Shown piece by piece: positions 7,895 to 13,623 of a stretch of DNA of 64,000 nucleotides. The stretch lies in contig CAVVLO010000002.1 of NCBI GenBank assembly GCA_963749155.1, positions 32,001 through 96,000 of the forward strand, in the 5' to 3' direction. The notes beneath the pieces are model-generated. The model did not search any database, was not told the DNA's origin, and was given only the letters and a program-made list of their open reading frames with translations. This stretch comes from an uncultured Armatimonadia bacterium (GTDB taxonomy: Bacteria > Armatimonadota > Zipacnadia > CAVVLO01). Within the stretch, counting starts at the first letter, position 1, and every line of letters starts with the position of its first letter. The position numbers and the translations under genes are program-made.

Positions 7895-9547
7895 TCAGGG
7901 AGCAAGTACCAACTGACTGAAATCTTCTTCGGGCAGCCTGCCTGCCTGGAGCAGTCCCCCTGTGACCTGATCCCAAAGCCAACTGAGCGAAGCGGCTGGT
8001 CGCTCTGACTTGAGCCGCTGGACCAGTTGCCTGATTTCCTCAGGTGTCGCGGCAACTGGTCTGGGCAACGCCTCTTCTGTTTTACGGAAATGGAAGACCA
8101 GATCATGCTTGTTTGGCTTGCCCGTGTTTATCTGATTATACGACCGTTGCCCGACTACCACCCGGGTTGGCGCCCCTCCCGCGAAAGCGAAGCCTGCCTG
8201 CCGCACAGCTTCCTGCAAGGCCCAGAGAGCATCCCACCGGCTGTTCTGGTAACAGAGGGAGAGCCACCGGCCTGGCTTCAGCACCCGCCGGCACTCAGCC
8301 AGGGCGGCGGTCAGCCCCTTTTGCCAATCCTCAAGGTGCTTGCCTTGAAACCGGTTTACGACCAGCTCGCTCCTGTCCCAGTCAGCAGGTAGACCAAGCC
8401 AGGCTTCAAAGAGGAAGTTAAGCTCGGAATATTGCACACTGTCTGCATAGGGCGGGTCGGTCAGCACATAATCTACCGACTCATCTGCAAGCTGTGAAAG
8501 GTCTCTGGCGTCTGCCTGAGCCAGCAGGGCCGGAGGTTGACCGGCAAGCTCCTGCTTAGCCAGTGCGAGCGCCCTGGCGACACTTTCGGCTTTGCCGAGG
8601 AACAGATTCCAGACATTGTTTTCACGCTGCACGGGAGGCACATAATAGGTGCCTCTGAGAGTGTTGCCATTGCTCAAGGTGCACATCCGCGTGCAGCCCA
8701 GCAGGTTGCCGGAAAAGGCCAGCAGCAAGGGACGCCTTTGGGCCTCTGGCAGCGCCTCTATGCCAGCTTTCAGCTTTCCAAGCACTGCCAGAGCGCGTCC
8801 AGTGAAGAGCTGCGCAAGCTCAGCTATTCCTGCTCTATGCAGTCTTGCGGTCTCCTTCCCTACCGGAAAACGCGCCTTGGGTACACTCTCCGGTACCGGT
8901 AAAGCCTCTGTTGCGCGCCACAGGGCAAGGTCTGCCTGGAAAGCCGGGGCGGTTAAGCCCCGTGAGGCAAGCTTTGGCTTGCATCCTGCCAGGCACTCAT
9001 ATCGCAGCCCAACTGGCTCTGTGTCGCCCACAGGAAGGGCCTGGCCCAACTTCGCGCCACAGCTCTCACAGCCCTCTTGCCTCTGTTCAAGCAACTGGCT
9101 ATGTCCACATTTGGCGCACTGGAAACGGGTGGCGTGGACATAATAACGAGCGCTGGCCTGGCCTCCACAGCGGTCGCAGGTGGTGGCATACAACTCTTGA
9201 AACTGCGCGACAAGCTCTGCCTTGAGGTGCTCCAGTCCGAGTCTCAGGTCGCTTGCGCTGGCGGGATCAACAAGCTGCCTGGTCAGCCAGACAGCGAGGG
9301 GTGAGAGATCATAGGCCACAGCTTGCCTGCCAAGTGAACGTGCCGCAAAAGCGGTGCCCCCAGCCCCGCACATAGGATCAAGCACTACTTCGCCCGGATC
9401 CGTGAAATACTCGATGAGCTGCCTGAGCGCCTGGTGAGGTTTTTTCGAAGGATAAACGTGCAGGTCGTAAAGGGGCGAACGCCGATTGCTCACGCTAATC
9501 TCGGCGGGAGGTGAAAGGTGCTCTCCGCGCTTGTCAGCGGAGGCCAT
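7895..9547 (-). CDS. Orphan N6-adenine/N4-cytosine DNA methyltransferase with Cys-rich insert
   Basis: Motif I VLDPMCGAGGT, catalytic TDPPY, RVLKPG, several CxxC pairs. Confidence 0.85.
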   Translation of the reverse strand: MASADKRGEHLSPPAEISVSNRRSPLYDLHVYPSKKPHQALRQLIEYFTDPGEVVLDPMCGAGGTAFAARSLGRQAVAYDLSPLAVWLTRQLVDPASASDLRLGLEHLKAELVAQFQELYATTCDRCGGQASARYYVHATRFQCAKCGHSQLLEQRQEGCESCGAKLGQALPVGDTEPVGLRYECLAGCKPKLASRGLTAPAFQADLALWRATEALPVPESVPKARFPVGKETARLHRAGIAELAQLFTGRALAVLGKLKAGIEALPEAQRRPLLLAFSGNLLGCTRMCTLSNGNTLRGTYYVPPVQRENNVWNLFLGKAESVARALALAKQELAGQPPALLAQADARDLSQLADESVDYVLTDPPYADSVQYSELNFLFEAWLGLPADWDRSELVVNRFQGKHLEDWQKGLTAALAECRRVLKPGRWLSLCYQNSRWDALWALQEAVRQAGFAFAGGAPTRVVVGQRSYNQINTGKPNKHDLVFHFRKTEEALPRPVAATPEEIRQLVQRLKSERPAASLSWLWDQVTGGLLQAGRLPEEDFSQLVLAP

Positions 9548-9561
9548 ATGCCACTCGGAGG

Positions 9562-9771
9562 CTAGCTTGCGCCTTCGGTTTGGGTGTTCCGGCGCAATTC
9601 CTCAAGGAGTTTATCGGCCTTCTTCAAAGCGGAGTCGATTTTGCGCTCCACATTGCCGGCACTCTTACCGCGGCGCTTGAAGTACTCTACCAGGCTAGCG
9701 ATGGCGAGTGCCGAGGCCACCAGCACCACAAGCCAGGCGAGTAGATTCATACCCTTGCCGCTACGGCTCAT
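9562..9771 (-). CDS. Small single-TM protein with coiled-coil-like C-terminus
   Basis: Hydrophobic helix LLAWLVVLVASALAIASLV followed by KIDSALKKADKLLEELRR; GGAGGG RBS. Confidence 0.65.
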   Translation of the reverse strand: MSRSGKGMNLLAWLVVLVASALAIASLVEYFKRRGKSAGNVERKIDSALKKADKLLEELRRNTQTEGAS

Positions 9772-9839
9772 AGGACCCTCCAACCAGTGAGAACAACGAA
9801 TAAGCGCTGAGTTAGTATAGCCGCTTGATGCCCCTGTGG

Positions 9840-10718
9840 TCAACGCGCAGCGGGCGCTTTCCTTGTCATGGGAGCAAAAATACAGGCGCGCGGGGCTTCT
9901 GACTTCGCCAGGTTATTTACGCCAACCAGTAGATCGCTACGATTCAGTCCCAAAGGTTCGGCAGCTTGCCTTACAGCCTGGTCAGTCTGACCAAGGGAAG
10001 CGGTGCGGGCAAGCAGCAAATGGAGCATCATCCGGGTCGGCGAGACCGATAAAGACCGCCGCTCGAGGTCGGTCACTGCGCTCCTGGCCGCTTTGGAGGC
10101 GTCGCTGGCCTCTTCATCACTTAGTCCGGCTAGCATAATCCTGCTGCCTTCAGCGGCCCACTTCAGGTCAGCAGGCTGGGTAGGCAGTGCCCCTTCCTGG
10201 GAGCAGAAGGCTGTCAGGTGCTCGAGCAGCCTGGCTGCCCGATGACCGCGCTGGGCGAACAGCTCCTGGATGGGTGTGACTTTGAGTTGCTCGGAGGGGG
10301 GCAACTGGTCCCATATCACGAGGTCGAAGCAACCTTTTGCAAACTCGACGAGTTCGGCCGAGAGCCCTTCGAGGTTAGCCGAACCAGGGCGCATCGGATC
10401 AGCCATCAGAATCAGCACCGAAAGCTCCGAAGAGACTTTCCCCACCTCGGCGGCAAGTGCTGTCCCGCCTCCGCGCTGCCATTCTTCGACTCCCGCAAGC
10501 GCTATCACGTGAGTGACTCCAGCCAGTTCGCGCTTCAACTCGCGACGCCAGCCAGCTTCACTGCGCAGCAACAGGAAATCAGCGTTGCGGACGAGTCCTG
10601 GCCGGTCCGAAGTAATAAGCACCGAGCGCGCGCCGGGCAGCACCACTTCGCTACTCAGCACCCATTCGCCGAGTTGCTCCATCGCCAGTATCAGCGTCTT
10701 GTTTGAATCCGGCATCAT
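9840..10718 (-). CDS. Highly divergent FtsZ/tubulin-fold protein with degenerate GTPase motifs
   Basis: Colinear by-eye similarity to FtsZ over the whole length (see findings); start placed downstream of a TGnTATACT element at 10751-10759. Confidence 0.6.
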   Translation of the reverse strand: MMPDSNKTLILAMEQLGEWVLSSEVVLPGARSVLITSDRPGLVRNADFLLLRSEAGWRRELKRELAGVTHVIALAGVEEWQRGGGTALAAEVGKVSSELSVLILMADPMRPGSANLEGLSAELVEFAKGCFDLVIWDQLPPSEQLKVTPIQELFAQRGHRAARLLEHLTAFCSQEGALPTQPADLKWAAEGSRIMLAGLSDEEASDASKAARSAVTDLERRSLSVSPTRMMLHLLLARTASLGQTDQAVRQAAEPLGLNRSDLLVGVNNLAKSEAPRACIFAPMTRKAPAAR

Positions 10719-10750
10719 CCACGCCTGCCCTGCAAAACTCTCTTGCCGGC

Positions 10751-10812
10751 AGTATAGCACGCCTTCTGTTCCAGTCGACTTGTTTGACACATAAGAGGCC
10801 CTCTCCTAAGAT
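10751..10812. promoter_or_regulatory. Back-to-back divergent sigma70-type promoters
   Basis: Plus strand: TTGACA 10784-89, 17 bp, TAAGAT 10807-12. Minus strand: extended -10 TGCTATACT at 10751-59. Confidence 0.6.
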
Positions 10813-10819
10813 GCCGCCG

Positions 10820-12137
10820 ATGAGTGAATATCTCGAAACCGCCGCACTTGCCGATTCCTTCGCGCGTTCGCTCAGACCTCGTGGCAGGCTGACTGTGCCG
10901 GGCGGTCTGTTGCGCGCGCTTTGGCGCTATCTGGCCGAGCAACTGGGAGAGGACTGGCAAGAGCACCGGAAGCCCCAGCTCGCGGCCAGGGTGCAGGCGC
11001 TTTCGTCCTGGTATGCGGATCGCTCTCAGCCCTTACCGCCCGATCCGGATTATCACGCGGCGGCTTATGCAGCCTATTTCGTGCCGATGAACTTCCCCAA
11101 GCTGGAGGTCCTGCTGCCTGACTTGCTGCGCGCCAATCTGCTGAAGCCAACTCTGCGAGTGCTGGATCTGGGCTCTGGCCCCGGCACGATTGGATTATCG
11201 CTTATTGATGCGCTAGCGCGCCTGCGGCAGCTCTGGCCAACCGAACAACAAGTGCCCGAGTTGACTCTCGACCTGCAACAGGTCGACCTGGATGCCGAAT
11301 TTGTTGAGGCTGCCCATTGGCTTATTAACTATTACTCAAATCAGTTTGAAGGCGTAAATTGCTGCCTCCACCCTACAGTGACAGGCTCACTTCTGGATGA
11401 GGCAGTGTGGCAGTCAAGTCCAGGGCAAGCAATACGACCTGATAGTCTTCTGCAATGTACTAAATGAGTTATCGACGCTTTCCTGGCCTGAGAGGGCCGA
11501 ACTGGTGCAACGGTACAGTGAAGCACTGGCTCCCGATGGCACACTGGTGCTTATCGAACCTGCGGTAGAAGAAGCTTCGCTAGGAGTGAGAGAGGTACAG
11601 ACAAGCTTGATAGAAGCAGGCTGGACGCTTTTTGCTCCCTGTTATATAACCGCTGAGACCTTCACGCCTGAGGCCTGCCGAAAGTGCTGGTGGGTCGATG
11701 GAGAAGGAGTTGCCCCGATTCGGTTGATCCAGGAGCTAGGCCTCATGCGGCTTAACACTCGTTTTACCTGGGCGCTGCTGCGCAAGGATGGGCGCAGCCG
11801 ACATGAAGCCCTGCTGCAGCAAGGCTTCGAGATACCTGCTTTCGAACCCGGAAGAGAAGAACTGGTGGGTTTCTGCGCGGGCAGCAACCTTTACCGGGAC
11901 AAACACTTCAGGTACAAACTCTGCGATGCCAGGCATGGCGCCAATTATGTCCATCTGCTTGGATATAAACAATTGATTAGTGACTCTAATCAGCAACTCC
12001 GTGCTCTTCGCCCAGGAGACCTGGTATGCGTGCATCCCGCCGAATTCACGACGCGCGATGATGGCACACCGGTCAGCAGTGATTGGGTAGTCCACGTTGG
12101 GCGCACAAGCGAATTGGCAAAGCTGGAGTCACGCTAG
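10820..12137 (+). CDS. Rsm22-like class I SAM-dependent methyltransferase (frameshift near 11415)
   Basis: AAAYAAYFVP.N, RVLDLGSGPGT; second frame continues YDLIVFCNVLNEL, GTLVLIEPA, FAPC..C..CW. Confidence 0.75.
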
Positions 12138-12312: not shown

Positions 12313-12582
12313 GATAATAGTTTAATGAATGTGGCTCGAAGGCGCCGGCCCTTACTGCCCAAACACCAAGGCTTGCCAGTCGAGTGATCGCAGCACTTCA
12401 TCGCAGCAACCATCGCAGTCCTTCTACACAGCCTTGGCCAACGGTTCGCCCGGTTTCATTAGCTGGGCAATTTACTGTAATGGTGGCCCTTCCACAGCCA
12501 AACGCCCAGCTTTGCTGTACCTGCAGTTTATCAGCCAAACAAGGGCTTGGAGGCCCTGATTAATCTTAGGGAGAGTGGAAAG

Positions 12583-13623
12583 ATGAAACTCGGTTATCTC
12601 TTATTTGTTGTGTTGTTTGTTCTGTCGCTTGCTTTTGTAGCAGGCGCCCAGACGCTTGATTGCTCCGGTCGCCCAGGCGGCAGTGGTGGAGGCTGCGGCG
12701 GAGGCTGCGGTGGAGGTTGTGGGCAGCCTTGCGATGGCCTGGTAACGGTCATAAGCGATGATGCTTGTGTCGTGACTGATGACAACGTTAACTGGAACCA
12801 TGCGGTCGAGATCGACTTTCCTATCTGGCCAAATGAACTGACGGACACCTACGGCGCGCAGTACATTTGGGCCTGCCAGCTTCCGGTACCGCTGTCTTAC
12901 TTCGGCCCTTACCGATTCACCAAAGTATTCTACCTGCCGCGCAGTCGCAGTTATGACGGCTGGATCAAGGCGACCGCCGACAACTGCTACATGATGTATG
13001 TGAATGGTCAGTTCATTGGCGGCACTTGTCAGTCAGAGCTTCCTAGTGGCGATCCACTGGAATATATGACCAACGCAGGTGGAGTCGAGGTTGACCCGCG
13101 TCAGTGGGCCATTCCCGAGGAATTCGTGCTGGATGAGACCGTCCTGCATCCTGGCTGGAACTGCATTGACTGTTATGGGACCAACTGGCTGACCTTCTGG
13201 CTCAACGGCAGACAGATGAACGTAAATCCAGGCGAGGGCAATCCCGCAGGCGTCATCTTTGCTGCTCAGATCCATCACGATTGCTATACCTCAATCAAGA
13301 TGACTCCCCAGGCGCTCAACAACACCAGCAGCGGCAAGTATGTGAAACTTCATATTGCGAAGGCGCCCGAATCTTGGCACACCGGTTGGCAGAATCTTCT
13401 GCTTAACGGCGAGATAGCTCCTCTGGAGGCCAAGAGCCTGGGCGGAGCAGCTTGCGCTGGCGCGCTGCAGGTCGTCTACTCGCGTCAGGCTGTCGAGGAA
13501 TGGCTTGCTGCTAATGTCTACAACGCTGGCACCTGGGAAGGGCGTTATACCTTCTGGGTGGAATATGATGGTTTCTTCGGCGAGGACAATATCAAGATAA
13601 TGGATCCGCCGAAATTCAAGTAA
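12583..13623 (+). CDS. Secreted Cys-rich protein with galactose-binding-like beta-sandwich domain
   Basis: Signal peptide; GGGC x3 linker; AQYIW..YRFTKVF..ATADN...YVNG..LHPGWN..NPAGVIF pattern. Confidence 0.65.
   Translation: MKLGYLLFVVLFVLSLAFVAGAQTLDCSGRPGGSGGGCGGGCGGGCGQPCDGLVTVISDDACVVTDDNVNWNHAVEIDFPIWPNELTDTYGAQYIWACQLPVPLSYFGPYRFTKVFYLPRSRSYDGWIKATADNCYMMYVNGQFIGGTCQSELPSGDPLEYMTNAGGVEVDPRQWAIPEEFVLDETVLHPGWNCIDCYGTNWLTFWLNGRQMNVNPGEGNPAGVIFAAQIHHDCYTSIKMTPQALNNTSSGKYVKLHIAKAPESWHTGWQNLLLNGEIAPLEAKSLGGAACAGALQVVYSRQAVEEWLAANVYNAGTWEGRYTFWVEYDGFFGEDNIKIMDPPKFK
12685..12720 (+). repeat. Three 12-nt tandem repeats encoding (GGGC)3
   Basis: ggtggaggctgc ggcggaggctgc ggtggaggttgt. Confidence 0.85.

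Follow-up and report, generated by a model that had tools for sequence, protein, structure and literature searches.

A likely FtsZ-fold protein without GTP-binding motifs is paired with a divergent Rsm22-family methyltransferase in two uncultured bacterial lineages

The tubulin signature motif, carried by the T4 loop, reads [SAG]GGTG[SA]G and goes together with a glycine-rich T1 loop. Truncated FtsZ paralogues occur in Agrobacterium. The sections of Makarova and Koonin 2010 (PMC2875224) and Santana-Molina et al. 2023 (PMC9871819) that survey this superfamily describe FtsZl1/Tubulin_2, FtsZl2, CetZ, TubZ and divergent copies of FtsZ. [quoted passage not shown] The septins, in the part of their literature that concerns pseudoGTPases, are a nucleotide-dependent filament family with members that lack a working nucleotide site (PMC10731463). 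Here we describe a gene from an uncultured Armatimonadia bacterium, located in a 64,000-nucleotide stretch of contig CAVVLO010000002.1 (positions 32,001 to 96,000; hereafter the window, with positions counted from its first letter). Its product is probably a two-domain protein of the FtsZ/tubulin superfamily, highly diverged and closest to bacterial FtsZ, that is kept by selection and has lost its nucleotide site. Its architecture and genomic context are unmatched in the descriptions given in those sections of PMC2875224 and PMC9871819. In addition, a literature search in which supplements were left unopened found no account of the family and none that pairs an FtsZ-like protein with a methyltransferase of the Rsm22 type. 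The gene is placed as follows.

9840..10718, minus strand: gene for a 292-amino-acid predicted FtsZ-fold protein without GTP-binding motifs; an intact open reading frame (ORF) with its translation, stop codon at 9840-9842, start codon ATG at 10718.

Below, P0001 denotes this 292-amino-acid protein, P0002 and P0003 its relatives, and A1 the alignment and profile built from this three-sequence family. When 1.84 billion representative proteins were searched in full with HMMER, three matched: P0002, a 93% strain variant; P0003, which is 280 amino acids long, collinear with P0001 and 42% identical to it (E 4.8e-57); and P0004. The last, a secreted-type repeat protein of 816 amino acids matched in five stretches (E 7.2e-10), was rejected as spurious because only residues 48-110 of the 316-amino-acid query were matched, once per repeat. 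Clusters at 90% identity added a few strain variants (P0005, P0006 and P0007). Queried with the single sequence, a word-indexed search of 5.8 billion clusters returned P0002 alone, to which the profile added P0003 and nothing else, a scan of genome contigs with A1 gave 124 pattern matches, none of which was confirmed, and a scan of metagenome contigs yielded one locus, L028. Searches of 40 relatives and of 78 other genomes of the class did not turn up the protein, and the 400 other genomes of the phylum held no true family member. Searches of plasmids and phages with tblastn gave no match. No family in Pfam or NCBIfam matched at E up to 10, none in PADLOC or PHROGs at E up to 0.1, and no PDB sequence at E up to 10 with either the protein or A1; Rfam matched nothing in the whole window. 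The known family is two lineages, both uncultured.

Within one of these lineages, variation among strains shows how the gene is maintained. Logan contigs from three metagenome runs (X1, X2 and X4) cover it without gaps; they are 90-99% identical to it and differ by 27-60 substitutions. Among the best-supported 40 of 186 differences, 30 are synonymous and 10 non-synonymous in the annotated frame, compared with 3-21 synonymous in the other five frames, and 28 of the 40 fall at third codon positions (binomial p 2.4e-6). This synonymous excess, together with the collinear 42% homologue, demonstrates purifying selection. The gene is not a relic; an earlier account of the window, made from its letters and ORFs without database searches (the sequence-only reading), had named a decaying remnant without conserved homologues as the outcome that would overturn it, and P0003 and the substitution pattern point the other way.

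We then consider what the protein is related to. The A1 hidden Markov model (HMM), run over six-frame translations of the 400 other genomes of the phylum, matched weakly in 24, with per-genome E values of 1.1e-4 to 7.6e-3 and with query residues 56-216 covered in most cases. Nine of the 24 loci were translated, and all nine proved to be canonical FtsZ with GGGTGTG, NDRL and NLDFAD. Consistent with this, hhalign placed A1 against A2, a profile made of 18 FtsZ cores found in members of this class, with a probability of 47-56% and a score of 37-38 (38.3) over 228-229 collinear columns from H3 to S10. The highest score among 100 column shuffles was 20.6 (median 13.8), the reversed alignment scored 13.6, two LepA profiles 9.8 and 10.9, and a profile of the neighbouring methyltransferase 18.9 over 23 columns. 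Since no control exceeded 20.6, the alignment is beyond chance. It pairs HVIALAGVEEWQRGG with MVFxTxGMGGGTGTG, SVLILMADPM with TVGVV-TxPF, DLVIWDQLP with DxLIVIPND, IQELFA with LEEAFR, GALPTQPADLK with GLINLDFADVR and RIMLAGLS with TxLMGIG, and it sets MMLHLL..LGQTDQAV..DLLVGV on the strands and helix of FtsZ_C. From H3 onward these are nearly the same columns that the sequence-only reading had aligned by eye. In global hhalign alignments the N-terminal ~50 residues, which hold the equivalents of T1, T2 and T3, could not be sensibly aligned by sequence. In the ESM Atlas, P0001 (score 0.90, 193 shared features) and P0003 (0.92, 202 shared) share the same top cluster, hypothetical proteins of ~271 amino acids with FtsZ_C on 40% of members.

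Structure prediction gave a concordant picture. An AlphaFold model built from A1 had a mean predicted local distance difference test (pLDDT) score of 48.5 and a predicted template modelling (pTM) score of 0.42, and its order of strands and helices matches that of FtsZ; a model from the single sequence (pLDDT 38.4) was set aside. At this confidence the A1 model shows a two-domain architecture, with a Rossmann-type N-terminal domain, the core helix H7 and a C-terminal beta-alpha domain. In a Foldseek search of the PDB, 40 of the 43 rows listed were FtsZ and one was TubZ (best E 2.3e-5). When Foldseek's top 968 chains were superposed with VIA-align, the best 50 comprised 49 FtsZ chains and one CetZ, with Z from 14.6 to 11.9 and 165-210 residues aligned, and model residues 1-269 lay on FtsZ residues 7-316. 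An independent VIA-align run over 48,161 representative chains placed members of the FtsZ/tubulin superfamily at ranks 1-9: FtsZ (Z 13.8), CetZ2 (12.6), OdinTubulin (11.6), PhuZ (11.3), CetZ (11.1), tubulin (11.1), Asgard tubulin (10.5), FtsZ (10.2) and PhuZ (10.1). The leading match, FtsZ 2vaw, aligned over 200 residues with a root-mean-square deviation of 3.9, spanning model residues 1-268. Because the sequence-only and structure-based lines of evidence agree and are specific, we consider the FtsZ fold assignment very likely. The two-domain fold that had been proposed from the sequence has thereby gained both profile matches (hhalign) and structural matches (Foldseek, VIA-align) to FtsZ.

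The residues that make FtsZ a GTPase are a different matter. Because the first 50 residues could not be aligned by sequence, statements on T1 to T3 draw on predicted secondary structure and superposition. The loops compare as follows.

T1: GGGGxN in FtsZ; AMEQLGEW in the window protein; AIEGLGEG in P0003; family pattern A-[MI]-E-x-L-G-E, after strand 1.
T4: GGGTGTG in FtsZ; EEWQRGG in the window protein; EEWRRAH in P0003.
T5: TxPF in FtsZ; ADPM in the window protein; ADPM in P0003.
T6: Asn-Asp in FtsZ; Leu-Pro in the window protein.
T7: NLDFAD in FtsZ; PTQPAD in the window protein; TSSAVE in P0003.

Of the T7 motif NxDxxD/E only the final acidic residue is retained, and the T3 loop appears to be deleted, since predicted strand 3 runs almost directly into helix H3. 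Both points agree with the sequence-only reading, which had given T3 as missing and T7 as keeping just its last Asp. That reading had also called every GTP-binding and catalytic loop eroded. The GTP-binding and T7 signatures are indeed gone, but eroded is inexact: EEWxR (T4) and ADPMR (T5) are invariant between two lineages sharing ~41-42% identity, which indicates that the loops were rewritten and not merely eroded. Since acidic residues replace the phosphate-binding glycines, GTP binding is unlikely, and we infer from these motifs that the protein would neither bind nor hydrolyse GTP. At the C-terminus, the chain ends eight residues past the last strand in the window protein and two residues past it in P0003; eight residues leave no room for a linker or C-terminal peptide, so the absence of a C-terminal tail noted earlier stands. 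The genome's own FtsZ ends in DLPPFLRQ.

These losses suggest a protein that has probably ceased to act as a division filament. Lacking T7, it would be unable to activate hydrolysis in an adjacent FtsZ subunit, and lacking the linker and the C-terminal peptide that binds FtsA, ZipA and SepF, it would have no usual membrane tether. Because the GTP motifs, T7 and the C-terminal peptide have all been lost, the protein may serve as a static FtsZ-fold scaffold, not as a dynamic filament former.

The second main observation concerns the gene next door, which encodes a divergent Rsm22-family methyltransferase and is transcribed away from the FtsZ-fold gene. The region between and beyond the two start codons holds the following features.

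10719..10819, no strand: divergent intergenic region of ~100 bp common to the FtsZ-fold and methyltransferase genes.
10751..10778, minus strand: sigma-70-like promoter match, TCGACT-16-TATACT with TG, 33 bases 5' of ATG 10718; consensus match only.
10784..10812, plus strand: promoter-like site facing the methyltransferase, a consensus match inside the divergent spacer.
10820..11413, plus strand: N-terminal part of a putative Rsm22-family class I S-adenosylmethionine (SAM) methyltransferase with the motif VLDLGSGPGT, from the ORF and family models.
11418..12137, plus strand: C-terminal part of the same methyltransferase, with a Cys-rich FAPC..PEAC.KCWW stretch and a C-terminal domain, from the ORF and alignment.

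The ORF listing also gives a longer frame for the FtsZ-fold gene, 9840..10790 on the minus strand, which encodes 316 amino acids from GTG 10790. ATG 10718 is the better-supported start on sequence grounds, because the homologue P0003 starts at the equivalent Met, because the in-frame stretch 5' of that Met is unlike the one in locus L028, and because the promoter-like site at 10778..10751 would fall within the 316-amino-acid version. Three promoter-like sites were found in 9400-11000, compared with 0.4 expected from shuffles. The promoter of its own that the gene had been credited with is thus present as a sigma-70-like consensus match.

The methyltransferase frame is broken in the assembly near 11411-11414, and the X4 and X2 contigs have one base fewer, at 11411 and 11414, respectively. 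Since these related contigs lack one base and an intact version of 441 amino acids exists (P0009, the strain version), the break may mark a difference between strains but is more likely an error of the assembly. P0009 matches Pfam Rsm22 (PF09243) marginally, at 23.3 bits for a cut-off of 23, and Methyltransf_23 at 29.6 bits for a cut-off of 27. At L028 a divergent methyltransferase gene precedes the gene of the P0003 type; its product is intact at 454 amino acids and 56-64% identical to the methyltransferase of the window. The C-terminal part of the window's methyltransferase is 64% identical to residues 217-452 of the L028 protein, and the divergent spacer there measures 87 bases (1541-1627). 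The L028 methyltransferase scores 18.6 bits against Rsm22, below the cut-off of 23, and more distant relatives (25-34% identity) are named by their source as Rsm22 family or SAM-dependent methyltransferase. Close relatives were confined to the same two lineages, with the next best among the 5.8 billion clusters being 27% identical, and the methyltransferase was not found in the 78 other genomes of the class or the 400 other genomes of the phylum.

The two genes are therefore adjacent, head-to-head and equally narrow in distribution in both known lineages, and this pairing is a new finding. Because the head-to-head arrangement is conserved and the narrow distribution identical, we infer, less firmly than the loss of GTP binding, that the FtsZ-fold protein and the methyltransferase act together, the former perhaps as a partner, adaptor or regulator. 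Both genes may be expressed from the shared intergenic region of ~90-100 bp.

Several points weigh against the view that this is a selected, nucleotide-free relative of FtsZ that is linked to a methyltransferase. The structural model has low confidence and was built from only three sequences, and matches to such models can mislead. The FtsZ matches of the A1 HMM are marginal, 376 of the 400 genomes gave none, and among the 15 of 24 matches outside the translated nine, three cover another query range (165-259). The hhalign probability is only ~50%; the Pfam Tubulin and FtsZ_C models miss the 292-amino-acid protein at E up to 10, and FtsZ_C and A2, run over the genome itself at E up to 10, recovered the canonical ftsZ only. 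The loss of GTP binding is read from motifs, and the invariant motifs that took their place could accommodate a different ligand. Between the lineages, conservation is fairly even, so that no single surface stands out in this comparison of two. As for the methyltransferase, the link comes from two lineages, of which the P0003 lineage offers 1.8 kb of context; the two may merely share an ancestral gene order, and genes that diverge are not co-transcribed.

On its other side the FtsZ-fold gene is followed by genes on the same strand, and a further gene lies beyond the methyltransferase.

9814..9843, minus strand (read 9843..9814): promoter-like site of the 69-amino-acid gene, by consensus match.
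9562..9771, minus strand: gene for a 69-amino-acid protein with one predicted transmembrane helix followed by a charged helix; an ORF with GGAGGG 5 bases 5' of its ATG.
7895..9547, minus strand: gene for a 550-amino-acid N6/N4 DNA methylase with a zinc-ribbon-like insert, from family models.
Third gene downstream, minus strand: PolX-type polymerase gene, from family models.
12547-13623, plus strand: gene for a 358-amino-acid secreted-looking protein with a GGGCGGGCGGGCG stretch after a signal-like helix; no Pfam match at E up to 1e-5.

The 69-amino-acid protein matches no family, apart from a weak spanin-like PHROG match (E 0.015). A 232-base contig from one metatranscriptome run covers 9541-9772; it is not proof of transcription and misses the FtsZ-fold gene. 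In the X1 contig, whose stretch 9500-9854 we set against 9855-10634, the first listed difference is at 9855; the listed differences (40 of 186), all of them supported by X1, span 9855-10431, and the rest of the 60 in X1 would lie further on if the differences are listed in order of position, as they seem to be. X1 seemingly has no listed difference in the 355 bases (9500-9854) that include the gene for the small membrane protein with its promoter-like site, a tentative observation that could reflect a recombination boundary at the stop codon of the FtsZ-fold gene or an unusually conserved small gene. The 550-amino-acid DNA methylase resembles part of PADLOC PglXI (7.9e-64), type II methyltransferase models and DUF1156-type methylases, and no restriction or BREX partner genes were seen among the scanned neighbours.

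None of the scanned neighbours of the FtsZ-fold gene is a division and cell wall (dcw) gene, and the only canonical ftsZ of the genome lies ~1.46 Mb away on the same contig, in keeping with the position outside any dcw cluster given by the sequence-only reading. Against PF00091 and PF12327 this ftsZ scores 145 and 95-97 bits, whereas the FtsZ-fold protein matches no family. The canonical gene (G000:C2:1504701-1505622) is itself split: a frame of 173 codons carries the Tubulin domain and an ORF of 231 codons carries FtsZ_C. The break reads as one extra G in GCAGGAG at ~G000:C2:1505119-1505126; as with the methyltransferase break, an indel made in assembly is the probable cause. In another genome of the class we noticed a second Tubulin-domain gene (G021:C61:1-2659; E 6.4e-34, T1 region GLGQCG), which seems to be a separate paralogue of the FtsZ/tubulin kind, with no relation to the family described here.

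With the canonical ftsZ placed, an alternative can be weighed in which the FtsZ-fold protein is a modulator of the Z-ring, binding the end or side of a native FtsZ protofilament through a retained longitudinal face and, for want of both a GTP site and a functional T7 loop, capping or stabilizing it. The fold is nearer to FtsZ proper (Z 13.8-14.6) than to tubulin, TubZ or CetZ (12.6 or less), the family HMM singles out FtsZ of the same phylum, and the single canonical ftsZ of the genome would offer a target. The distance of that gene, however, and the lack of any genomic link to ftsZ or dcw argue against such a role, as does the conserved neighbour, a methyltransferase. Moreover, the loops of the top face are all rewritten, and the stretch equivalent to T7 and the start of H8, which would contact an adjacent FtsZ subunit, ranks with the stretches that differ most between the lineages (5 of 16 residues identical). 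The sequence-only reading had suggested capping or modulation of Z-ring filaments; with nothing tying the gene to ftsZ and the T7/H8 stretch so variable, our results neither support nor refute this, and we regard it as unlikely, if the best placed of the alternatives.

A more far-reaching version of the methyltransferase link would take the FtsZ fold wholly out of the cytoskeleton. The protein would be a nucleotide-free, dedicated partner of the Rsm22-family enzyme that presents or gates an RNA or protein substrate, the rewritten pocket with its EEWxR and ADPMR motifs would be a new binding site, and the two genes would form a module peculiar to a few uncultured sediment and digester lineages. 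We offer this as a speculation, a little less probable again than a role at the Z-ring.

An artefact in the fold assignment is also conceivable: AlphaFold may by chance have drawn towards FtsZ what is really a new fold or an ordinary alpha/beta protein of Rossmann or flavodoxin-like type. A model of such low confidence leaves room for this, as do the Rossmann-type chains that match its N-terminal half at Z 9-10, the sub-threshold SIS_2 match in P0003 (E 0.047), the lack of any matching curated family model and the negative reverse HMM searches. Yet these generic folds reach Z of at most 10 and cover model residues 4 to ~176 only, that is, the N-terminal domain, and beyond residue 176 only FtsZ/tubulin chains match, with ~200 aligned residues. 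Evidence that owes nothing to the model, namely the HMM matches and an hhalign score far above those of shuffles and unrelated alpha/beta profiles, points to FtsZ as well; the hhalign alignment covers both domains in order, and the ESM features agree with FtsZ. An artefact is for these reasons improbable.

Still less credible is a methylation-linked defence or epigenetic module that would unite the FtsZ-fold gene with the downstream 550-amino-acid DNA methylase and the upstream methyltransferase. The genes all lie within 6 kb, and besides the matches of the downstream methylase to PADLOC PglXI and type II methyltransferase models, both methyltransferases weakly match mad2 (1.3e-13; 1.7e-5 and 6.9e-4). 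The mad2 matches are, however, expected from the shared methyltransferase domain; neither the FtsZ-fold protein nor the small downstream protein has a PADLOC match, and the former has no PHROG match. Plasmids and phages gave no match, no nuclease or other effector was present among the scanned neighbours, and composition is even across the region, all of which makes such a module highly doubtful. Finally, the idea that ftsZ was once duplicated and that the gene is what remains of the copy, decaying or without function, for which one might cite the loss of all catalytic motifs, the very narrow distribution (three matches in 1.84 billion representatives, one of them spurious) and the frame breaks in two other genes of the assembly, can be put aside as the least probable of all, given the excess of synonymous over non-synonymous changes and third-position bias among the best-supported differences, the absence of indels in three strains, a full-length collinear homologue with invariant replacement motifs and the promoter-like site upstream.

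We therefore return to the reading of a diverged, selected FtsZ relative without a nucleotide site. FtsZ and tubulin are defined by GTP-driven assembly, and a member that selection has kept without GTP loops or T7 prompts one to ask what other roles the fold can take on. Should the protein still bind FtsZ, nature would have provided a genetically encoded cap or regulator of filaments; should it be a true partner of the methyltransferase, the fold would have been reused outside the cytoskeleton. Either prospect is tempered by the tiny size of the family, which spans two uncultured lineages with no cultured host, and by the weakness of the structural model.

Set beside known systems, the protein recalls several without coinciding with any of them. 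Co-assembly with active paralogues is known or presumed for septin pseudoGTPases and the Agrobacterium paralogues; no sign of such a link emerged for the FtsZ-fold protein. FtsZl1 and FtsZl2 resemble it in being diverged, sparse FtsZ/tubulin branches, as the relevant section of PMC2875224 presents them. Compared with FtsZl1, the protein has no Tubulin_2 match, no extension (at 292 amino acids) and an FtsZ-type C-terminal domain, and it lies among genes for methyltransferases, a small membrane protein and PolX. From FtsZl2 it appears set apart by the absence of nucleotide motifs, a distinction that follows from the description of FtsZl2 in that section (PMC2875224). CetZ, TubZ/PhuZ and the tubulins have the same superfamily fold as the model; they are GTP-binding filament formers, which the protein described here probably is not. 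Their Z scores against the model (CetZ2 12.6, OdinTubulin 11.6, PhuZ 11.3, tubulin 11.1, TubZ 8.8-9.7) fall below the 13.8-14.6 of FtsZ, by gaps that are small. The earlier account did not recognise the protein as CetZ, TubZ, FtsZl1 or FtsZl2; by the features tested it does not fit FtsZl1 and probably not CetZ or TubZ, and its lack of nucleotide motifs departs from the description of FtsZl2. Canonical FtsZ (PF00091 and PF12327; PDB 2vaw, 1ofu and 1w5f) has a Pfam match, a linker, a C-terminal peptide and dcw context, none of which applies here, where T1, T4, T6 and T7 have been replaced, T3 is missing and the core is ~25-30 residues shorter, with ~10-14% identity in structural alignments. It is nonetheless the best structural match to the model (Z 13.8-14.6, 165-200 residues aligned), and the two share the same order of secondary-structure elements through both domains.

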